Notes under the pieces: model-generated
What the model was told of the DNA's origin: nothing
The model's database searches: none
The model's input: only the letters and a program-made list of their open reading frames with translations
Part shown: positions 32,847 through 45,293 of the stretch, piece by piece
Layout of the letters: each line of letters starts with the position of its first letter
Position numbering within the stretch: position 1 is the first letter of the stretch
Made by a program: the position numbers and the translations under genes
Origin: Naegleria gruberi
Taxonomy: Eukaryota
NCBI GenBank assembly: GCA_000004985.1
Contig: GG738909.1
Direction: 5' to 3' (one strand)
Length of the DNA: 64,000 bases

Positions 32847-35276
32847 ATGGATCAACAACAATCTGGTGAGGATATTCACCTCCTAGCCAAGACAGTGCTG
32901 AGTAGTCAGGACCGCAGTGAAAGTTTGGTCGGTATTAGTAATTCTCGAGATGTTTTGGAAAATTCACATCATCACTATAATAACGATGATGACGATACAC
33001 AACATGAAGTTGATGTTGATGATATGGTAACCTATCGACACGGAAAGCCAATTAAAAAACCACTTTTACCTAATTTTTCACAGATGAGTAAGAAGGAGGT
33101 GGCCAAATTATCGTTGAGAACTTCAAAGATTTTGATATTATCTGTTTTATTTGTGGTATTCGGAGTTGTTTATAGTGTTTTTCATAGAAATCCAGTGGAA
33201 GATACTCTTCATTTCGTTTCTATTGGAGAAGCAGAACCAAAATATATTGAATTCAGTACAAGTCAACCTCGTGATATTTTGAGTATTGAAGTTGAAGTGC
33301 CAATTGTTGGTAACGATGTAATTTATAATTTGAGAAAACAAGCCACACATAATGAGGAAAATCATGATTGGAATTTAGTTTTTCAAATTCAAAAATCAAT
33401 GTTTGACAGTGAATTTATTAACTTGTCTGATCAAAATTATACAATTGATTTCCTTCCAAATTTCCCAAGTGTGAATCATACAGAAGTGAATCAAACTGAT
33501 CATCACACAAGTAATCATACTGAACCACATGAGCCAGAACAAGAAAATGTTGATGAAGAGGAATCTGAAATTCAAGCTATCAAGGGATCTTACACATTCA
33601 GCACTGATTTATCCACTCTCAATCAAGAGGAAAAGAAAAATGTTACCTACAGATTGCTTATTACCACCTCATTCCCACAAAATTATACCAACTCATTTGC
33701 AATCAAGGTAAATTTCAAGCAACAACCTGACTATGCCAAGTATAAGGTTATTTATGCTGCATTGGTGTTGGTGTTTGTCTATATTTTGATTATTTTCGAA
33801 TTGGTTCACAGAACTGTTGCTTCCATGCTTGGTTCGTTTATAGTTTTGGCTGTTATGGCTTTTATCAATCAAAGACCAACTTTGAAGGAAATTTGTGAAT
33901 GGATGGAATATGATACTCTTACCTTGTTGTTTGGTATGATGATCATGGTTGGTATCTTTGCCAATACTGGGTTCTTTGAATGGATAGCCCTTGTGGCCTA
34001 CAAATTATCAAAGGGAAGCGTTTGGAGATTGACAGTCATTTTGTGTTTATTCACTGCTGTTGTTTCAGCTTTCCTCGACAATGTCACAACAATTTTGCTT
34101 GTAGTTCCAGTTACTTTGAGGTTGTGCAGTGTTGTAAATGTTTCTCCAATTCCAATCGTTATTAGCGAAGTAATTTTCAGTAATATTGGTGGTGTAGCAA
34201 CAGCTGTCGGTGACCCTCCAATTGTCATTATTGTAAACCATCCTGCCATTAAGGCTCTAAATATTGGATTTTTGGATATTTCTATTTATTTGGCTCCATG
34301 TGCTGTCATTATTGGTGCCTGTACTATTCTTCCAATTCGTTTATTGAACTGGAACCTTTTCAAGACAAAGCCAGATATTGATAATGAAAAGCTTCAAAGA
34401 GAAAAGGAAATTGAAATTTGGGAACAAACTTTGAGAAAGACTAGAGGAAACGGCATTGAAGAAATGAAAGTTAAAGAAAGCTTGCAACTTCACATTGTCA
34501 ACTTGAAAAGTCAGTTGGAAGAATATTTAACATCAAGAGGATCCAATGTCAATAATGGAAAGCTAGGTGCCAAGGAGATGAAGGAATTAAGTGAACAATA
34601 CTTTATTCACAATCCTCGTTTATTCATTATCTGCAGTGCCATTTTGATTATTTGCATTATTTTCTTCTTCTTGGAAAGTTTTATTCACCATTATGTTCAA
34701 ACTAGCTTGGCTGAGGTTGCCATTATTGGAGCTATTACAATGTTATTGCTTTCTGGAATAGACGATCTTGAAGAAGTAATTGAAAAGGTCGAATGGACAA
34801 CTTTACTATTCTTTGGATCACTCTTCATTCTCATGGAAGGATTAACTAAACTTGGATTGATTGATTTTATTGGCACTTGGACTTCATATGTTATCTCACT
34901 TGTACCTGCTGGAGATTTGAGATTATTTGTTGCCATTACTGTGCTTGTATGGGTTTCAGGAATAGTTTCTGCCTTTATCGATAACTTACCATACGCCTCA
35001 GCAATGATTCCAATTGTTTTGAAATTAGCTGAAGAACCAACCAATTTACCTGTTAGACCAATCTTGTGGGCTCTTGCCTTAGGTACATGCTTAGGCGGTA
35101 ATGGTACCATTATTGGAGCTAGTGCCAACGTTGTTGCAGCAGGTATTTGTGAAAATAGTGGACACAAAATGGGTTTCGTTCAGTTCATGAAATACGGCTT
35201 CCCATGCATGCTTCTTTCATTATTGATTAGTAATATTTATCTTGTCATTTTGCATGTTGCCATTGGTGTGAGATAA
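32847..35276 (+). CDS. OCA2/P-protein-like permease (ArsB/NhaD anion-permease superfamily), 809 aa
   Basis: ATG at 32847. Long acidic cytosolic N-terminus. Two 6-TM halves separated by a charged loop. Conserved permease segments such as DNVTTILLVVPVTL, IFSNIGGVATAVGDPPIVII, LGTCLGGNGTIIGASANVV. Confidence 0.75.
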   Translation: MDQQQSGEDIHLLAKTVLSSQDRSESLVGISNSRDVLENSHHHYNNDDDDTQHEVDVDDMVTYRHGKPIKKPLLPNFSQMSKKEVAKLSLRTSKILILSVLFVVFGVVYSVFHRNPVEDTLHFVSIGEAEPKYIEFSTSQPRDILSIEVEVPIVGNDVIYNLRKQATHNEENHDWNLVFQIQKSMFDSEFINLSDQNYTIDFLPNFPSVNHTEVNQTDHHTSNHTEPHEPEQENVDEEESEIQAIKGSYTFSTDLSTLNQEEKKNVTYRLLITTSFPQNYTNSFAIKVNFKQQPDYAKYKVIYAALVLVFVYILIIFELVHRTVASMLGSFIVLAVMAFINQRPTLKEICEWMEYDTLTLLFGMMIMVGIFANTGFFEWIALVAYKLSKGSVWRLTVILCLFTAVVSAFLDNVTTILLVVPVTLRLCSVVNVSPIPIVISEVIFSNIGGVATAVGDPPIVIIVNHPAIKALNIGFLDISIYLAPCAVIIGACTILPIRLLNWNLFKTKPDIDNEKLQREKEIEIWEQTLRKTRGNGIEEMKVKESLQLHIVNLKSQLEEYLTSRGSNVNNGKLGAKEMKELSEQYFIHNPRLFIICSAILIICIIFFFLESFIHHYVQTSLAEVAIIGAITMLLLSGIDDLEEVIEKVEWTTLLFFGSLFILMEGLTKLGLIDFIGTWTSYVISLVPAGDLRLFVAITVLVWVSGIVSAFIDNLPYASAMIPIVLKLAEEPTNLPVRPILWALALGTCLGGNGTIIGASANVVAAGICENSGHKMGFVQFMKYGFPCMLLSLLISNIYLVILHVAIGVR

Positions 35277-35683: not shown

Positions 35684-36835
35684 ATGGGAAGCGCAATCTC
35701 TCATCAACCGACAAGTAAGGAAGATAAGAAGATTAAAAAGAAGGTTAAAAAGAAGAAACAAAAGGATGTAAGTATTTTACTTTTGGAAATTTGGAAAATC
35801 ATAATTAAATAGCTTCAAAAATCATTAGAAGCCTCACTTGGAAATCTTGTTTCACCCGAGGAAATTACTCAATTTTTTAATTTATATTCATCTCCGAAAC
35901 TATTGGAGGAATGTTTCTTTGATTTTGAAACATTATATGAAAAGCTATTGGATAATAATGGAGAGGTGAGAAAACTCAAAGTTAATCTAGCTGTTATCAA
36001 TATTCAAAAGTGGTGTGAGAGTCGATTAAAAACGAGACTTGTTGCCAATGTATTACGAGTTACAGAGAGAAAGAAATTGGGATTTGGTTTGGTTCATGTT
36101 GCAATTCTGTTGGGACAATACATTATTCATTGGTTTGATGACGGATTGGTTCATCTGACTCCTATTAAATCCTCACATCCAAATCTTGCTGTTGAAGTTG
36201 GAGAGCTGGATATTGAAGAAAAAAAGGATCAGGAGAAGATTAAACAATTATGCTTTGTGATTTCAGAATATAACACCAAGATGGTGTATAATAATAGGAA
36301 TTGTAATTGTCATCATTTTGTTAGAGATTGCATCAGTGCATTGGATTTGAATTTCTCTTCAATAATGAAAGGACAACTTGGAAATTATCTAAGGAGAATA
36401 AGAAATGGAAAATTACTTACAGAAAGAGAATTCTGTAATCCTATCACTCAAGAAAGAGTGCTGTTTAATACTCACAAACAATTAGATGAATATGTGATCG
36501 ATCTGTTAACAAAACACCCATCTTTCAAAGAAGAGCATCCCTATGATTTTGAGTTATTGAAAGCGTTTGATAGAGGATTCTGGATGGGACATCTCAAAGA
36601 CAAACATGAAAAACTCAAACAAGCAGAAGGACTTCATTATACGTGGAATGAAATATTTCTTCCTCTCATCAAACAAGAAGAGAAAGAGGAAATTGAAAAA
36701 CTTCCTGATGTTGAGGAAACTGCTGAAACTGAAACAATTGTATGCTCTTCTTTTGTGCATTCCATAATTTTTCATGAAAATTATGTCTGTCCATTTGGAG
36801 ATCCACATACTGTTGGATGCTTTTTAGATGTCTAA
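35684..36835 (+). CDS. N-myristoylated PPPDE/DeSI-like (DUF862) putative peptidase, 2 exons (35684..35767, 35813..36835)
   Basis: ATG at 35684 gives MGSAISHQP (Gly2/Ser6 myristoylation consensus). Exon 1 ends at GTAAGT (35768). The aaatag acceptor at 35812 defines a 45-nt intron, phase 0. PPPDE dyad: His in GFGLVHVAILLG and Cys in YNNRNCNCHHFVRDCISAL (compare DeSI HLMHKNCNHFSSALSEIL). Conserved C-terminal module LLKAFDRGFW...CPFGDPHTVGCF. Confidence 0.65.
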
Positions 36836-36951
36836 GATATTGTAAATATTGGCATTTATTTATTCACTTTAGTAACTCGAGTTGTAAACCATTTTTCCAA
36901 ATTAGTCACTTTCAATAAATTAACATTATTGAACACAATTTATCAAAAAAA

Positions 36952-38784
36952 ATGCGCAAACTCATCAGACAAACACTTCAATCATCAACTACCACTGGTA
37001 ATTTGTTAGCCAAGACAAGTTGTTCATTACGTTCAACAAGATTAGTACTTCCATTCGGAATGACATCAAATAATAGTGCAAGTGGAAGTTTATTCAATCA
37101 TTTTGGTTCAACTTGTTGTGGAAATTTGATTAGGTCAAATTATCACACCAATAGAATTTCTCTAAAGAATCTACAACAAGAATGTACTGAAAAATTGGAA
37201 AGTCTTGAAGAAAAGGTTTCACAATTGGTAGTTGCTTCTTTGGCTAACAATTCTGATGATTTGTTGATAAAACAAAAGAAACAAATTGGAAATGAAGTTT
37301 ATTTACTTCTCGGGAAGATAAATCAAGTTGCACAATCAGGAGAAAATTCTGCTCAATTTTATTTGAATTATATTAGAGCTGTTAGATTGTGTGTCAAATG
37401 TTCATTGAAAGGTTTTATTAATCTTGAAACAACTGATGACTTTTTGGCATTCTTGATTAGGGAAAGAGAAAGATTGACTGAAATCAAAGATCCTTCACCA
37501 GCAGTTCCTCACTTTGTTGTTGAATTTATTAAGAGAGAAATTACAGAACAAGATGTAATTGTTGAGAATGAAGATTGGCTCTTTGATTACACGTTCAATG
37601 CATTCAAAACAAACCCAGTTCTTATTGCATATGCTTCAAATATCAATTTGTGTCAATTCCTTCAACAATACTTGTCTGAATATGTTTCATTAAATATGAA
37701 CATGATTGGAAATACTGAATTGGAATATGAAGATCAAGTTATTGTTGAAAAGGAATTTTTCGAATCTGTATTCTATTGGGCTTATTATGTTGCCAATGTG
37801 AACTCATTTGTTGTGGAAGAAAACTCATTAAATCACATGAAGAAGATTTGTGAACAATACGATGCATGGAAAGGAATCAATAAGGATGTAACAATAACTG
37901 ATTTGGAAACTGGACTCGAACTCAAGCTCGACTCTTGTATGGAAGTTGTCAGAGGATCTATTTATGTCTGTGAAGGAAACTTGAGAGAAGCTGAAAAGTC
38001 ACTTAATAGAGCAATTGAAATTGATCCAAACAATGTTCATGCAAGTGGACTCTTATTGAGGGAATGTACTTTGAATTTATATCCAGAAAAGTTGGAAAGT
38101 CTCCAAGAAATTAACAATACCATCACAAGATTTAATCGTGTCCTTGATACTATGAGAAATAAGGAAATAGGAGGAGAGTTGCCTACTTCTGAAATTCCTC
38201 TATTCTCAGCTGATACCAATGTAAAAGCCAGTATTTTATTACATGCTGCTTCACTTGTCAATAAGGAAAGCAAATCTTATGGAGAACTCATCAAGAAATC
38301 AAAGGAATTTTATGACTTATCAGACAAGTTCATCAAACTTCCTTACAATATTTTGAATCTTTTTAATAGAGCTAGATTATATTACAGTTTGGAAGATTAC
38401 ACCAATGCAGTTGCCACAGTTGAGCAATTGTTGTCAATCAAATTTAAATTAACCGAAGACCAAATTAGAGATAGCGTAATCATCATGAATTTATCTCTTA
38501 TTAATTCTTCCCAAGCCAAGGAAGCAATCACAAAGATTGAACCATATGTCAGAGGAATGGCCTATGATTTGGAATTGAGATACTCATGGTTATTTGCCCA
38601 TGAAGCTCTCATCGAACAATCAAAAGATCAAACAGTTGCATTACACAAGTGTATCGAAGAATATCAAAAATTATTGACACCTCTTCAAAAATCTCACAAG
38701 GAAAATGGAAATAAGAATTTGATACCTCACATTTCACATCTTGAGAAGAAGATTGAACAAATTCAAGCCAAGTATTCAAAATAA
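36952..38784 (+). CDS. Helical-repeat (TPR-like) protein with Ser/Thr/Arg-rich N-terminal presequence-like region (610 aa)
   Basis: ATG at 36952. N-terminus MRKLIRQTLQSSTTTGNLLAKTSCSLRSTRLVLPFG resembles a mitochondrial targeting sequence. TPR-like repeats near residues 330-420 (GNLREAEKSLNRAIEIDPNNVHASGLLL). Intronless. Confidence 0.5.
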   Translation: MRKLIRQTLQSSTTTGNLLAKTSCSLRSTRLVLPFGMTSNNSASGSLFNHFGSTCCGNLIRSNYHTNRISLKNLQQECTEKLESLEEKVSQLVVASLANNSDDLLIKQKKQIGNEVYLLLGKINQVAQSGENSAQFYLNYIRAVRLCVKCSLKGFINLETTDDFLAFLIRERERLTEIKDPSPAVPHFVVEFIKREITEQDVIVENEDWLFDYTFNAFKTNPVLIAYASNINLCQFLQQYLSEYVSLNMNMIGNTELEYEDQVIVEKEFFESVFYWAYYVANVNSFVVEENSLNHMKKICEQYDAWKGINKDVTITDLETGLELKLDSCMEVVRGSIYVCEGNLREAEKSLNRAIEIDPNNVHASGLLLRECTLNLYPEKLESLQEINNTITRFNRVLDTMRNKEIGGELPTSEIPLFSADTNVKASILLHAASLVNKESKSYGELIKKSKEFYDLSDKFIKLPYNILNLFNRARLYYSLEDYTNAVATVEQLLSIKFKLTEDQIRDSVIIMNLSLINSSQAKEAITKIEPYVRGMAYDLELRYSWLFAHEALIEQSKDQTVALHKCIEEYQKLLTPLQKSHKENGNKNLIPHISHLEKKIEQIQAKYSK

Positions 38785-38829
38785 ACAGTACTGAGAATTC
38801 AACCAATCACAACAGTCCTTTACAATAAT

Positions 38830-40195
38830 TTATTCATCATCTTCGTCTTCTACATCAGAACTGGTGTCTTCATATCCACAAACGGTTTCATATTGTTCAT
38901 ATTCAAGAATTAAATCTTCGAAATTCCACTCAGCCTCATCCATTTCCATTTCGTCCATTCCTTCATTAAGGAAGTGTGAAAGATATGCCTTTCTTTTTAA
39001 TTGGTTTTTAAATGTGTCTCTAATTCTTTTGAAAGCCTGAGTTATGAAAGTAGCATTTGAAATCATTGAAGCAGAGCTGTTGAATTTACAGACAGGTGAA
39101 ATTGTTTCACATAAGGATGTATGAATACTGCTATGTATCCATTTGGAGAATTGAGATTCATTCTGTATTTTGATTTTTCCAGCACATTCTTCTATCATTG
39201 AAATATTCGAAATGGTACCTCTATAACAAATATTGCTAGTCAAGTATTTACCTTGTTGTGAATTGAGAGTAAGGAGATTATTTGATGAATCAAACAGATT
39301 TCTGGTTAAGGTTTCCAGAGTCGACTTGATTCCATTTTTCACATTCACTTCCATTTGTGATCTAGATATTGAGAAAAAGTGAAGCCTAGGATACGTAACC
39401 AGATTTGTTGCCAATTTTCTGTATGAAGAATTAAGACTCTGAGAAAATCTAAAAGGACTCGTGTACTCACACACCGATTGTGCTATTAAATCATTCAAAT
39501 TCTCATAGCCACAACTCTCCAGTTTAACTTCCTTCCTACAATACTGTTCCAAAGCCTGATTATCAAATAAAGTAACAAAAGTTGAAGCCAATAATGATTG
39601 AACTGAAAGTACAGAATTATAATAGGAAAGGGATCTACCTCCAAAACATTCTTCTGATGGCAAAACTGAAGTTGTGCCTATAAACTTTGATGGATAATCA
39701 TCAGAGAGGTGAGTAAGAATTTTTGAACCGAGTCCTGATCCAGATCCACCAATTATTGAATGAAAAACCTGAAATCCATCCAAGTAATCACATTGTTCAA
39801 TTCTCCTTCTTACTTGATCCATAATTTTCGGCTCAAGTAAGGATCCATCAGTGTAATATCCATTTCCAAATGAATTTCCATTCCCACAATTACCAAAGGT
39901 TGCAAACTTTGATTCCAATAACTTCTCATTAGACAGCAGTATCGAATTGATTGCCTCACTCTCCAAATCAGCTCATCACCACTCTCGGCACAAATTTACC
40001 ATCCTCTTTCTCATGAAGGAAAATATTACAATGTTCTTCAGCTATAGCTTTTAATTGATCGGATGAGGTTGCTGAATCAATCTTCTCTCCTGTAAATATA
40101 TTGAGGTGATGTTCCCTCATTAAATGTTTCCAAAATGATGACCCGATTCTATTACCACATCCTCCTATACAAATACTAACAATATCTTTCATCAA
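38830..40195 (-). CDS. Epsilon-tubulin; single-base frameshift as sequenced near 39968..39972
   Basis: ATGATG at 40190-40195 (MMKDIVSICIGGCGNRIGSSFWKHLMREHH, the tubulin GQCGNQIG N-terminus). After ...KFVPRVVMS a TGA occurs. The +1 frame continues ADLESEAINSILL...GFQVFHSIIGGSGSGLGSKILTHLSDDYP. Joined, PRVVMADLESEAINSIL matches the epsilon-tubulin signature (ARAVLIDMEEGVVNEIL in human TUBE1), and GGSGSGLG is the tubulin GGGTGSG motif. One extra nucleotide (atgAgct) breaks the frame. Confidence 0.75.
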
Positions 40196-40829
40196 TTTTT
40201 GTTGTTAAGGTAATTTTTAAATAATTTGTATCTTAACTCTTTAAGATCTCGGCGTCTGTGTAATTACTGTGTTACTACCTGTATTCCCTTGTGTTCCTCT
40301 ATCCAACCAATCACCTAATATTCGAATTTAAAGGTGTTGCATTAGGAAAGAACGTTCGTAATTATTGTGCTCGGCATGGAAGAATACAGGAAAGAACCTA
40401 GTTACAATTGCATTAGTTTTGTACATATTTTCTGAACTGTTTCTTCAGTACAATCACCATCGCGTAGAGTTATTTAGAAAAATCAAATCCTTATTAGAAT
40501 CTAGATTACAAGCAGCTTGTAATTCTTCATTAAAATGTAATTTCTCAGTTTCATCCATCAACACTAGTCCCAACTGAATAAACTTCACATTTTAATATTA
40601 GATGATATTGTAGCGTTATTGTTCCCTCACTTTACCATCACAAAGGCTTTCTCATCAAGACACCTCAATCCATCATCGCGCCTCAATTTATAAAAAAAAA
40701 GAAACAACACCTTATACATTACTACCTTGTAGATAAGAGGTTTAGTAGTAGTAGTTGATTATAAGACTATTTGAATAGTAAATTAAATAATTACCGGGTA
40801 TTTTAAAGTGATTATAAGAAGGTTGAGTG

Positions 40830-42921
40830 ATGGGAAATCTTAGTTCAAGTCGATTGACTGAGTTTGATTCTGCTCAAACTCAGCAGCCCCAACCTCCAAA
40901 TACCAATAATAGAAAGAGTGATGCGAGTAAGAAAAAAGACTTGACGCCTGATACTATTGTTCTAGGAAAGATTGAGGCTAGCAAATTAATTTCATCTAAA
41001 TTTAAGAAACAATCGGAAAAGGAAGCTTTTGCTAGACAACTGGCATTTGAAGATGAATTGAAACGAAATTTCCTCAATATGGAATTCGTACAACAATATC
41101 TAGAGCGAGAATACTATAGAAAACAACAGGATTTAAATTCATTGAATAGAGCTAGAATGTATCAGAGAGCTTCATCAATACCTGGGATAAGTGTGTCACC
41201 TCCTATTGTTCCTACCACTTCCCGAGGATCAGAAGCAGAAGCATCAGAATCAACTGGAGATGCAGATCAGGATGATGATGAGGAAGTTGAGCCAACTGTT
41301 GTAGCAAAAGCAACAAATTTGTATAGAGCTTTTAGAAAATCAATTGGAAGGTCTATTGGTTCTGAAGCTTCTTCTAGTCAAGATATATTCTCAAATCCGG
41401 CTGGACCTTATACTATAGATACTTTCTCTGCAGGCAATACCTTGACAGTTGGTGATGTCAATAATATTCTTTCCAGTGAAACTAAGCAAGAACAGGAATT
41501 AGATCCAATGCAAGATATTACATTCAAAATCAAATTGATTTTGGTGGATACTTTGAAGAGTGACACTCAAAAGAATATGAGACAATTCATTTCTCCAATT
41601 TTGGCAAAGATGGACAAGTTACCAAACCATGGTATTTTCCATTCTTCTATTAGTTTTGGACCATGGATTTTAGAATTTACAGACTGCGGTCTGTGTATTC
41701 CAAGAAAAATAACGAGTAAGATGGCTCTTCTCTCAATAGACATTAGTGAAATTAAGGGTTGGGATAACATTCAACAAGCTGTAAATAGAATTGCAAAAGT
41801 AGTCTGCAGATATAACACTCAAGTCACCTATTCTAGAAGTAGTACTAGAAGAGATTCGGTTATTTTTTCAAGTCCATCATCCCAATTAGCAATTGAAGGG
41901 CAAAGAAGATATTCTGATGCCCTATACGGATCCCCATATGGTACTCCAACAACTCCTGATTGTGTTTGTTTGAGTCCTCCAATTGGTGGTAGTGCTACTC
42001 TGACAGCTGTAGCTCAAACATTCGGTTCAGGATCTTCATCAGGTCTTGGTGCTGATTCAGGTAAATCAAATAATGGTGAAAGGTTTAGTCATTCTTTCCA
42101 TTCTCAGCACTCAGCACAAAATAAGGATCCTAAAACAAATGGAAACTGTCAAGATTTTGGTAAGTGAATTATCATTTTAGAATATTTTCTATATTTTCTA
42201 TATAGTTGATGAAATCTTGGATAATCTTGAAGCAACACCGGTATTTTCAGAATCTATGCATCAATTCCTTCGAAATTTGAGAAATAAGGGTGACAGTAAT
42301 CTTACTATTAAATTGGATGATCAATTTTTACAAAAGTTTGGTTTGGAGAATAATTCCTTTAATAATATCAAGGAAATGCTCACTCCAAAAAACCCTCTCA
42401 GCAGTGAGGTTAAATCTGTTCACTCAGTCCCAGATAATATGCTGACTACAGAAGCAGTGCAGCAGACATCAAGGAAAAGAAGTAAGAGTGAAGGTGTTCC
42501 ACGAGAAGTTGAAACTAATCCAATGGCATTCATTGAAATTCAAAATTATTGCATTACTTTCAACACCCATGAACAATTGGATTTGTTTGTAAATTTGTTG
42601 CTCACCAAAGATCCAATCTTTCCACGTACCAATCCACAAACCTATGAATTACTAAAGGCGTTTGATAGAGCTTTCTGGATTAAGTACAAATCAGCCCTCC
42701 TGTACAAACCAAATAACTTTAATCACAACCACCAACATGACCCACAACTTGAAATATTATCCTGGGCTCCTCTAAATATGCAATCCAAGACAATAGAAAT
42801 TGCAAGCAATTTAATGATTTGGAATGGAGAGAGAAAAAGAGTTCCGATAAATCAAAACCAACAATTGGGATGTCCTTTTGGTGATCCATTTTCCACAATG
42901 TCCTTCATTCACATTGAATAA
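40830..42921 (+). CDS. N-myristoylated paralog of the PPPDE/DeSI-like gene, catalytic Cys motif lost; 2 exons (40830..42159, 42206..42921)
   Basis: ATG at 40830 gives MGNLSSSRL (myristoylation consensus). Exon 1 ends at GTAAGT (42160). The tatatag acceptor at 42205 defines a 46-nt intron, phase 1. Retains the His region NHGIFHSSISFGPW and the YNTQVTY segment. Where the paralog has NCNCHHF this gene has SRSSTRRDS. Shares the C-terminal module FNTHEQLD...YELLKAFDRAFW...GCPFGDPFSTMSF. Confidence 0.6.
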
Positions 42922-43027: not shown

Positions 43028-45293
43028 TTAATATTTAACCTTCTTATTTGGAGGTGCTAATTGGTTATTTCTTTGAGGAGGATCATGGTGATGCCTATTG
43101 TCACGATGATAATTATTGGAATGACCTGAACCAGTTGAGCCATGATGTGAGCTACTAGAGTGGTGATGTGATGATTGGTGATGGTGGTGACTATTATGAT
43201 GTGAGCTACCATTATGGTGAGAGGAGCTAGTGTTCGAATGATGACTGCTATGGTGTGACGATTGATGATGGTGAGAGGGATTATAGGAATGTCTGTTACC
43301 ATTACTACTACCAAATGGTGGATGAGAGGATGATGTAGATGAAACACCATAGCTCTGATTAATATTGTGTGGCAACTGTTGGACACTGGTAGAACCTGGT
43401 AATTGATGTGAAGGTGCATTTGGTTTGTTATCACCCTTCTTTCTTGTAAGGAATTCATTAGTAGCTGTTGAAGGAAGATTTTTGAGTTTGATATTGGTTG
43501 TGGAACCCTTTTCCCAGAACCAGTCGTGATTTAAGCATTCATTGGTTGTTAATCGTTTGGCAGGATTAAGCACAAGAAGCTTATCAAGTAAATCTAAAAC
43601 CTTCTTTGAGCATGATTTCAAGTTTGCAAATCTTTCCAAGAGTCTTCTCTTCTTTGATTCTTTTGGTTTAAGAGCATTCCAATGAGCAAGATTTTCAACC
43701 TCAGCCCATTCTTCCGTTGAAGGAGTACCACACCATTCAAATATCTTTTCAAGCTGATTCACATCATCTGAACCAGGAAAGAGTGCTTTTGGTTCCTTTT
43801 CACCAGCAAAAGGTAAAAGCATTTCACCAAGAATACATCCCACTGACCACATATCAACAGCATAATCATAAGTTGTTGCTCCTAACAGTAATTCAGGTGG
43901 ACGATACCAACGAGTTACAACTCTATTAGTATATTCTTGTTTGTTTTTCTGTGCAATTCTTGATAAACCACTAACAAGTGTCATTGGTCATTGTTTAAAT
44001 GGTAAGGTGTTGAGCGGCAGGAAATAGGAGAGTATGATTTAAAAAAAATAATTGTTGGTTGAAATGGTTCAAACAATATGGATTTGATATTGTTATAATT
44101 AAAAATTGAAATTCAAACTTACAAATCGGCAAGCTTCAAAGTACCATCCTTCTTGATGAGAACATTTGATGCCTTTAAATCTCTGTGCATAATATCTCGA
44201 GAATGGCAGCAATGAAGAGCATTTAGGAGTTGATACATGATAGAACGAAGTTCGTCTTCATCGAATCTGTGTCCTTTAGCATTCAATCCTGCCAAATCAT
44301 GATCCACGTATTCAAAAACCAGGAAGAAGGTACCTTTTGAATTCCACGTAACATCAAGCAATTTTACAATGTTTTTATGTTCAATTTCCTTCAAAATTCT
44401 AATTTCACGAATGGATGTGATTGGAAAACCTTCCTTCTCTCTTTGTGGATCAATTCTAATCTTTTTAATAGCTACCAAACTGTTATCACGCTTATCAACA
44501 GCTTTGAATACTTCACCATAAGTGCCTTCTCCTACTTTACCTTCACTATTGTAGTAGGTATCAATACTAATGTTATTATAAAGTTAGATGATGATGATAA
44601 AACAGATTGAACAGAAAAACGTTAGCGAACATGTTGAGACAAAAAGAACACTTACTCTTTTTCAATATGTTGAAACCTTTCAGCGAGTGGATTTCTAGGA
44701 GGATTTGGTCTAGTAAAGTTATTGTTGTTAGGTTTAATAGTTGTAGTATTATTATTATTATTTTGTACACGTGTTGTTGTATTATCGGTTGGATGAGGCT
44801 TTTGAGTACCATTTAAAACTACTGGAGGAGGTGGAGGATGAGAAGATGAATCCTTTGTTGTTGTAGTTGTTGTTGTTGGTGGAGGAGGTCTTCTTTCTCC
44901 ATTCTGAGTAGATGATGATGTATTATTTGATGATGATGATGTACTATTGTGATGAGTGGTACTATTATTGCTTCTGTGGTGATGATACGAAGAGTTACTA
45001 CTGCTGCTAGCGTTAGAATTACTGCTAGAAGAATGATGTTTACTAGAGTGATAGTTATTTGTAGAATTACCACCTGATGATGTAGATCCATTTGCAGAGG
45101 AGTTATAGTTATTATAATTACTTCTTCCACCACTGTGTCGTCTCTCTCGGTTATCTACATCGTCTCGAGACCTTCTATCATTATAGTCACCATGATAATT
45201 TCTTCTGGAGTGATTGCTCTCCTTATTGTTGTGATCATCAAAAGTGCTTCTGCCTCTATCCTCTTCCATTTGCAATGATTTGTTATTGTTCAT
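43028..45293 (-). CDS. Cyclin-dependent kinase, CDK11/CDK12-like (PITSIRE), 3 exons (44656..45293, 44123..44566, 43028..43970)
   Basis: ATG at 45291-45293 (MNNNKSLQMEEDRGRS). The N-terminus is Arg/Asp/Ser- and Asn-rich. Exon 1 ends at GTAAGT (44655), followed by an 89-nt intron. Exon 2 carries the G-loop GEGTYGEVFKA, VAIKKI, EGFPITSIREI and HRDLKASN. Exon 2 ends at GTAAGT (44122), followed by a 152-nt intron. Exon 3 starts by completing DFGLSRIA, then WYRPPELLLG. The C-terminus is a His/Ser-rich tail (SSHHNGSSHHNSHHHHQSSHHH). Confidence 0.75.

Follow-up and report, generated by a model that had tools for sequence, protein, structure and literature searches.

The DeSI-1 and DeSI-2 proteins (PPPDE2 and PPPDE1; PDB 2wp7 and 3ebq) are represented in Pfam by PF05903, the Peptidase_C97 family formerly listed as DUF862, and in MEROPS by family C97. 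The catalytic centre of PPPDE1 consists of His38, Tyr101 and Cys108 (PMC9012467). The isopeptidase activity of DeSI-1/2 is weak or contested, and both proteins, as well as CLN5, act through a His-Tyr-Cys centre as efficient S-depalmitoylases in vitro (PMC9012467). RTE1/TMEM222, LRAT and C97 (PPPDE) have furthermore been placed in the same cluster of permuted NlpC/P60 proteins (PMC10318531). Here we compare these systems with two related genes found in a 64,000-nucleotide stretch of Naegleria gruberi DNA (contig GG738909.1 of assembly GCA_000004985.1; referred to in its entirety as the window), namely paralog 1 (35684..36835, + strand) and paralog 2 (40830..42921, + strand). It is probable that both encode intact, membrane-recruited Cys-His hydrolases belonging to a large, DeSI-like family of protist proteins, whose organism-named members are all Heterolobosea. 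A preliminary description of the locus had placed both genes correctly at these positions, and had interpreted them as an active enzyme accompanied by a catalytically dead paralog.

The claim that paralog 2 has lost its catalytic Cys motif was drawn from SRSSTRRDS, which directly follows YNTQVTY at the position where an NxNCxxF motif would be expected. These residues proved to be the first of a loop insertion of approximately 100 amino acids (approximately residues 335-435; 41832..42134, + strand), situated between the strand carrying the conserved Tyr and the helix carrying the Cys. Past the insertion, the open reading frame of paralog 2 continues with ...KTNGNCQDF, meets a 5' splice site, and resumes in exon 2 with VDEILDNLE..., whereas the raw, unspliced frame shows just '...NCQDFGK*'. 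The retained Cys was overlooked because it lies behind a Ser-rich loop and because its motif is split by a 46-nucleotide intron. Once the exons are joined, the counterpart of NRNCNCHHFVRDCISALDL in paralog 1 is TNGNCQDF|VDEILDNLEA, read across the exon junction, and the spliced TNGNCQDFVDEILDNLEATPVF...FLRNLRNKG matches NRNCNCHHFVRDCISALDLNF...YLRRIRNGK of paralog 1 residue by residue. Cys194 of paralog 1 falls in the same invariant column of the multiple alignment as Cys440 of paralog 2, and the columns of F197 and V198 are likewise invariant.

The codon of Cys440, in the motif GNCQDF, occupies 42147..42149 (+ strand), 10 nucleotides upstream of the 5' splice site. Paralog 2 is equally complete at the other conserved positions of the family profile, featuring His271 (41640..41642, + strand) as the catalytic His, Glu282 as the candidate third residue, Tyr334 (41829..41831, + strand), as well as Asn329, Asn439 and Phe443. 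GNCQDFVD is kept in all paralog 2 orthologs, these being P0007 from N. lovaniensis (58% identity, full length), the metagenomic P0008, and P0009 and P0010 from Willaertia magna, in all of which the insertions vary in length and sequence. The distance from Tyr to Cys varies accordingly, from 106 residues in N. gruberi paralog 2 to 101 in its N. lovaniensis ortholog and 175 in the Willaertia ortholog, compared with 7 (49 sequences) or 11-17 in most of the family. While a pseudo-enzyme should have lost at least one catalytic residue, His271, Tyr334 and Cys440 are all present, and paralog 2, as judged from its sequence, is not a pseudo-enzyme. Both observations that were to refute the preliminary description have been made, namely the absence of a PF05903 match at E<=10 in either window protein and the retention of the Cys in a correct alignment, and the pairing of an active enzyme with a dead one falls.

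The insertion itself is rich in Ser, Gly and Thr (18% Ser), and blocks such as IFSSPSSQLAxEGQRR are conserved between the Naegleria orthologs. The possibility that it is an unrecognised intron was considered and rejected: its reading frame is free of stops, blocks of its amino acid sequence are conserved in N. lovaniensis and P0008, and it forms part of the annotated protein. The 340-residue Ser-rich N-terminal extension previously ascribed to paralog 2 was overstated: its catalytic His is residue 271 and that of paralog 1 residue 123, giving an N-terminal region some 150 amino acids longer, with 12% Ser. Paralog 2 thus differs from paralog 1 just by this longer N-terminal region and by the loop of approximately 100 amino acids.

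Both gene models correspond to the accepted annotation, since their spliced products equal annotated proteins. Paralog 1 comprises two exons separated by one 45-nucleotide intron and encodes 368 amino acids. Its exon 1 (35684..35767, + strand) encodes MGSAISHQPTS, followed by the polybasic KEDKKIKKKVKKKKQKD; the intron (35768..35812, + strand; GTAAGT...TAG, of the GT..AG type) is followed by exon 2 (35813..36835, + strand), which encodes residues 29-368 and the stop. The spliced product is 100% identical to the annotated N. gruberi protein P0001. Paralog 2 likewise has two exons, encoding 681 amino acids. Exon 1 (40830..42159, + strand) begins with MGNLSS and contributes residues 1-443 as well as the first base of codon 444, which is interrupted by the 46-nucleotide intron (42160..42205, + strand; GTAAGT...TAG; NCQDF|VDEIL). 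Exon 2 (42206..42921, + strand) supplies residues 444-681 and the stop, covering what remains of the Cys helix, VDEILDNLEATPVFSESMHQFLRNLRNKG, together with the C-terminal module. The spliced 681-residue product is exactly EFC38269.1/XP_002671013.1 (NAEGRDRAFT_81672). The sole annotation of both proteins is 'predicted protein', and the precomputed Pfam record lists no domain for P0001 or for any of its listed homologs.

The relationship between the two genes is beyond chance. In a BLASTP comparison their C-terminal modules align at E=1e-13, with NCHHFVRDCISALD aligned to NCQDFVDEILDNLE, and a second local alignment pairs NCNCHHFVRDCISALDLNFSSIMKGQLGNYLRRIRN with NGNCQDFVDEILDNLEATPVFSESMHQFLRNLRN; moreover, a single family profile scores both proteins at >400 bits. 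All of the motifs quoted in the preliminary description were found, including GLVHVAIL/GIFHSSIS, YNTKMVY/YNTQVTY, FNTH[KE]QLD, LLKAFDR[GA]FW, CPFGDP[HF][TS] and the NRNCNCHHF of paralog 1. Overall identity is nevertheless only ~25%. Paralog 1 belongs to a minor subgroup of the family (9 of 162 sequences) marked by NCHHF and a His as third residue, and paralog 2 to the majority group with Glu at that position and NCQDF. In N. lovaniensis and Willaertia, orthologs of the two are already distinct. A recent tandem duplication was rejected on these three grounds, and the two genes are, by the same comparisons, ancient members of a very large family and not a recent local pair.

The extent of this family became visible only when 1.84 billion representatives of 50%-identity clusters were searched exhaustively with a HMMER profile, which returned 1326 members at E<=1e-3, 778 at E<=1e-10 and 248 at E<=1e-30; word-indexed homolog searches recovered just 4-26 relatives. 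Taxonomy was taken from 30 proteins looked up by name. All organism-named members among them come from the Heterolobosea, the species being N. gruberi, N. lovaniensis and Willaertia magna. A further member, a transcript, has an accession prefix that occurs in a paper on deep-branching heteroloboseids, and the others derive from metagenomes or EukProt sets. Conservation was counted over 162 family sequences. The catalytic His stands in a G-x-[FV]-H context in 153 of 156 sequences, the nucleophile is Cys in 157 of 160 within N-C-Q/H-x-F, and W/Y-N...Y is likewise conserved. Eleven residues past the catalytic His, Glu (128 sequences), Asp (17) or His (9) is found. With all three considered, 151 of the 162 sequences show invariant or near-invariant His, Tyr and Cys, which are present in both paralogs and all of their orthologs. 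A few relatives outside the window depart from this pattern: in P0128, P0135, P0145 and P0118 the nucleophile Cys is replaced by Ser (NSQDF, NSQHF, NSHQF) or the catalytic His by Asp, Gln or Tyr, while the C-terminal CPFxDP motif is retained. These may be true pseudo-enzymes or variants with a Ser nucleophile.

In paralog 1, the permuted papain-like, DeSI/PPPDE-like catalytic core spans approximately residues 80-230 (35966..36418, + strand). Alignment places the catalytic His123 at 36095..36097, Tyr187 at 36287..36289 and the nucleophile Cys194, within NCHHF, at 36308..36310 (all on the + strand), with His134, 11 positions past His123, as the candidate third catalytic residue. In paralog 1 numbering, the columns H123, N182, Y187, C194, F197, F246 and H249 are invariant in alignments A1 (8 sequences) and A3, as are D253, K278, D281, R282, W285, C354 and P359. 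An AlphaFold2 (AF2) model built from 8 sequences was poor, with a predicted local distance difference test score (pLDDT) of 58. A second model, from a 29-sequence alignment, reached a pLDDT of 71.5 and a predicted template modelling score of 0.71, the core blocks having a pLDDT of 84-97. Here, His123 lies within a strand (122-128) and Cys194 opens a helix (194-204), and in the model this is a papain-like arrangement in permuted order, the beta-sheet preceding the nucleophile helix as in circularly permuted papain-like folds. When the model was submitted to Foldseek, PPPDE1 (3ebq) was the only confident match (E=4.9e-3, probability 1.00); the 8-sequence model had already matched 2wp7 at E=0.019. 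The PPPDE/DeSI-type core of the preliminary description is therefore upheld as regards the permuted papain-like fold, with DeSI-1/2 as the closest solved relatives, and is not upheld as regards membership in PF05903, for which no match was found at E<=10.

A connection to PPPDE nonetheless emerges from other members of the family. Among 42 diverse family cores, a Pfam scan matched PF05903 in 13 at E<=1 (weakly; best E=5.8e-6), RTE1 in six and LRAT in four. P0048, an 893-residue N. gruberi protein (XP_002668523.1), reaches 43.4 bits (E=4e-11) with PF05903, above the gathering score of 29.2 bits, and its match at residues 389-477 covers its His394 and Cys466. The same protein, the only family member found above that threshold, scores E=5e-57 on the family profile, and the two results together link the family to PPPDE. 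P0048 begins with MGSSHSS and combines a protein kinase domain with two tandem copies of the DeSI-like domain. The DeSI residue order, His...Tyr...Cys with the Cys in an NCxxF context, recurs in the window as H123/Y187/C194 and H271/Y334/C440.

The conserved C-terminal half of these proteins, a distinctive feature already pointed out in the preliminary description, is in our searches a hallmark of the family, for which Pfam holds no model. A Pfam scan of the two modules alone gave no match at all, and no counterpart was found in the PDB. The module begins near 36425 (+ strand) in paralog 1 and in paralog 2 reads FNTHEQLD...LLKAFDRAFW...CPFGDPFS; across the family it is marked by F-x-x-H-x-x-L-D and L-L-K-x-F-D-R-x-F-W, while 128 of the 162 members carry C[PA]Fx[DNH]P, whose median distance from the C-terminus is 10 residues. 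The invariant Cys of the tail is Cys354 in paralog 1 (36788..36790, + strand) and Cys666 in paralog 2 (42871..42873, + strand). The AF2 model renders these ~135 residues as a beta-hairpin followed by helices and a disordered linker, with the CPFGDP tail, whose pLDDT of ~73 suggests docking, at the end. Inteins are uncommon in nuclear-type eukaryotic genes and usually occupy functionally critical sites. One relative outside the window, P0116 (1001 amino acids, from a JGI metagenome; see also P0159 and P0160), bears a VMA-type intein (Hom_end_hint at E=2e-30 and a homing endonuclease at E=4.8e-18; beginning CFAQGTLV and ending VHN) just before the conserved Cys of C[PA]FxDP (...RNCH|intein|CAFQDPTSTKS), which serves as the +1 residue. 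Its location at exactly this Cys hints that the position is functionally critical.

Signals for membrane recruitment are found at the other end of the proteins. The PROSITE N-myristoylation pattern, G-{EDRKHPFYW}-x(2)-[STAGCN]-{P}, is matched by paralog 1 (MGSAISH) and paralog 2 (MGNLSSS), in agreement with the consensus noted earlier for both genes, and the orthologs begin with MGSAVSQ, MGNISSQ and MGNNSSN. P0002, the N. lovaniensis ortholog of paralog 1, combines MGSAVS with a polybasic stretch as paralog 1 does; such a stretch is a classical second membrane signal beside myristate. Of the 160 family members with a starting Met, 52 begin with MG, and the PROSITE pattern is matched by 31, an enrichment of p ~2e-21 against an assumed background of 7%. 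The N-terminal extensions of 74 long members contain SAM (14), PH (5), C2 (5), PX (1), RGS (1) and protein kinase (2) domains. We would interpret myristate, PH, C2 and PX as alternative routes to membranes across the whole family, while the SAM, kinase and RGS fusions appear to point to signalling. The membrane tethering proposed in the preliminary description is in this way supported, on sequence grounds, as a family-wide trait.

On the reading we favour, a Cys nucleophile (C194 / C440) at a helix N-terminus, within N-C-[QH]-x-F, would act together with a His on a beta-strand (H123 / H271), the polar residue 11 positions on (His134 / Glu282) and a Tyr (Y187 / Y334). An N-terminal myristate would tether both proteins to membranes, with the polybasic patch as an additional contact in paralog 1, and hydrolysis would be directed at membrane-associated substrates. 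The C-terminal module, with its invariant His, Asp, Lys, Asp, Arg and Trp and the CPFxDP Cys, probably serves substrate binding or regulation. In paralog 2, the disordered Ser-rich loop at the mouth of the active site may form a regulatory lid, possibly a phosphorylated one. As to the bond attacked, our preferred guess, offered tentatively and by analogy, is a thioester or lipid-linked bond such as S-acyl; a ubiquitin/SUMO isopeptide bond is our second choice and a less likely one, and such probability as is left falls to some other substrate. The thioester was ranked above the isopeptide because PPPDE1/2 and CLN5 depalmitoylate in vitro, because DeSI isopeptidase activity is weak or contested, and because of the membrane theme. 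It is conceivable, if rather improbable, that the proteins make up a new enzyme class, cysteine hydrolases or transferases recruited to membranes (e.g. S-deacylases), in which the C-terminal module provides a second, cooperating or autoregulatory site. Were this so, the expansion of the family and its SAM, PH, C2, PX, kinase and RGS fusions would mark a heterolobosean signalling system operating by reversible lipid or ubiquitin-like (Ubl) modification at membranes.

Several observations weigh against our interpretation of the pair as intact DeSI-like hydrolases at membranes. PF05903 was matched, at E<=10, by neither paralog 1 nor paralog 2, nor by paralog 2 with its insertion deleted, and searches of PDB chains with paralog 1, profile A1, the 42-sequence core profile A2 and the PF05903-positive domain of P0048 returned chance-level matches only, DeSI-1/2 not being among them. 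The structural evidence is an AF2 model of medium confidence derived from 29 sequences; catalysis by both proteins is a prediction from sequence and that model, and myristoylation a prediction from a consensus pattern. Lastly, the residue 11 past the His resembles the triads of LRAT/NlpC-P60 proteins more than the DeSI dyad, and the chemistry may therefore differ. This latter point feeds a possibility to which we give less than even credence, namely that the proteins are LRAT/PLAAT-like acyltransferases, phospholipases or S-acyl thioesterases, and not Ub/SUMO isopeptidases, working at membranes with a Cys-His-His/Glu triad and a covalent acyl-Cys intermediate. The conserved His, Glu or Asp at this position, as in LRAT/NlpC-P60 C-H-H triads (PMC10318531), the membrane-targeting devices seen throughout the family (myristoyl, PH, C2 and PX), and the in vitro S-depalmitoylation by PPPDE1/2 and CLN5 (PMC9012467) all speak for it.

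It is less likely that the two are genuine deSUMOylases or deubiquitinases, DeSI orthologs in function whose myristoylation is incidental. Their closest fold is that of DeSI-1/DeSI-2 and the Tyr-to-Cys spacing of paralog 1 is that of PPPDE1, but the PF05903 match is absent, identity in the structure-based comparison is ~18%, large extra modules are present at both termini, a massive lineage-specific expansion is atypical of core Ubl proteases, and isopeptidase activity is disputed even for DeSI-1/2 (PMC9012467). A further reading, by which the proteins would be non-enzymatic scaffolds and their similarity to DeSI a matter of convergent folds or an artefact of AlphaFold, draws on the model's middling confidence and on the absence of any above-threshold match between the window proteins and a Pfam papain-like family. 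We regard it as very improbable: His and Cys are near-invariant in >150 divergent sequences, at the strand and helix N-terminus where a papain-like enzyme would have them, independent weak Pfam matches all fall within one clan (PPPDE, RTE1 and LRAT), and one paralog, P0048, exceeds the PF05903 threshold. Least credible of all is an active paralog 1 beside a paralog 2 serving as dead pseudo-enzyme or regulator. The placement of SRSSTRRDS and the existence of genuine Cys-to-Ser or His-less relatives outside the window would favour it, but the alignment of the spliced TNGNCQDFVDEILDNLEATPVF with NRNCNCHHFVRDCISALDLNF leaves the catalytic columns intact, and GNCQDFVD is preserved, despite variable insertions, in the N. 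lovaniensis and Willaertia orthologs as well as in two metagenomic ones.

An interpretation of both genes as intact enzymes has some practical consequences. It averts a false annotation of paralog 2 as a pseudo-enzyme, points out the family's catalytic residues (His, Tyr, Cys and a probable third), and gives >1300 clusters labelled 'predicted protein', none with a Pfam domain, a place in the permuted NlpC/P60 (DeSI/PPPDE-like) clan. Protist acyl-protein thioesterases, or Ubl proteases associated with membranes, may reasonably be sought in the Naegleria branch, with its myristoylated and signalling-domain-fused members, and the genus includes the pathogen N. fowleri. We see this as an incremental extension of a known enzyme superfamily into an uncharacterised, lineage-expanded family, introducing no new principle; it is of use for annotation and relevant to specialists in papain-like enzymes and in Naegleria.

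The window is AT-rich (~34% GC), and the two paralogs are set among several other genes. Between them lie a gene for a 610-residue TPR-repeat protein (36952..38784, + strand; Pfam TPR_8/TPR_2 at residues 334-361) and a tubulin-family gene (38830..39966, - strand; Pfam Tubulin at E=5e-26 and Tubulin_C at E=2e-18, in an open reading frame without the N-terminal exon), the latter bearing out the tubulin gene reported there before. Upstream, paralog 1 is adjoined by the gene of an 809-residue membrane protein with a strong CitMHS / ArsB-type anion permease domain (32847..35276, + strand; E=6.7e-86). Beyond paralog 2 follows a protein kinase gene of at least two exons (43028..44478, - strand), whose C-terminal tail is extremely rich in His and Ser, with runs such as SHHHQSSHHSSHHSNTSSSHH. 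In N. lovaniensis, the order of the paralog 1 ortholog, the TPR gene and the paralog 2 ortholog is conserved on one strand within ~12 kb, with other genes intervening between the two orthologs and the TPR gene adjoining that of paralog 2; no tubulin match was found in the 22-kb N. lovaniensis locus around the TPR gene and the paralog 2 ortholog (L001). A 132-residue N. gruberi protein on a separate contig of 44,786 bp (P0183; XP_002668731.1) shares a 90%-identity cluster with paralog 2, and the N. gruberi assembly therefore contains part of this gene once more in near-identical form, be it as a haplotig or as a fragmentary duplicate. In Willaertia, P0010 is likewise present as two near-identical copies.

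How far, then, do these proteins resemble the systems already described? The cysteine-based S-depalmitoylase CLN5 (PDB 6r99) is a lysosomal luminal glycoprotein with other accessory domains; it shares no sequence similarity with the window proteins and carries neither a myristoylation signal nor the CPFxDP module. RTE1 (PF05608) is the only Pfam family to touch paralog 1, over some 32 residues around the Cys (177-208), at 14.4-16.2 bits (E=0.012-0.041) against a gathering score of 29.4 bits, and we do not count the pair as members. RTE1/TMEM222 proteins are, moreover, integral membrane proteins, an architecture that the window proteins do not share. The motif of LRAT/PLAAT proteins is NCEHFV, and the N-C-x-x-F-V of the window family looks similar. 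Membership in that group (PF04970; H-RAS-like suppressor), which would bring a PF04970 match, NCEHF with a His-His-Cys triad and a C-terminal anchor, was not borne out: hidden Markov model matches are sub-threshold and sporadic (4 of 42 cores), the structural match is far weaker than that to DeSI-1, and the predicted anchor is an N-terminal myristate or a PH, C2 or PX domain in place of a C-terminal transmembrane helix.

The likeness to DeSI-1/2 is the closest. In both, a strand-borne His precedes a Cys that opens a helix; the N-C-x-x-F motif is shared and, in paralog 1, the Tyr-to-Cys spacing of 7 equals that of PPPDE1 (PMC9012467). The differences lie in the low structure-based identity, in an extra helical N-terminal segment, in the conserved Glu, Asp or His 11 residues past the catalytic His, and in the ~135-residue C-terminal module (FxTHxxLD, LLKxFDRxFW and CPFxDP), which is missing from the DeSI proteins of 150-170 amino acids. 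N-myristoylation signals or fusions to lipid-binding domains, and a huge lineage-specific expansion, further set the window family apart. We conclude that the two paralogs belong to a distinct family within the permuted NlpC/P60 clan, outside PF05903 as now defined, with DeSI/PPPDE as its nearest neighbour.

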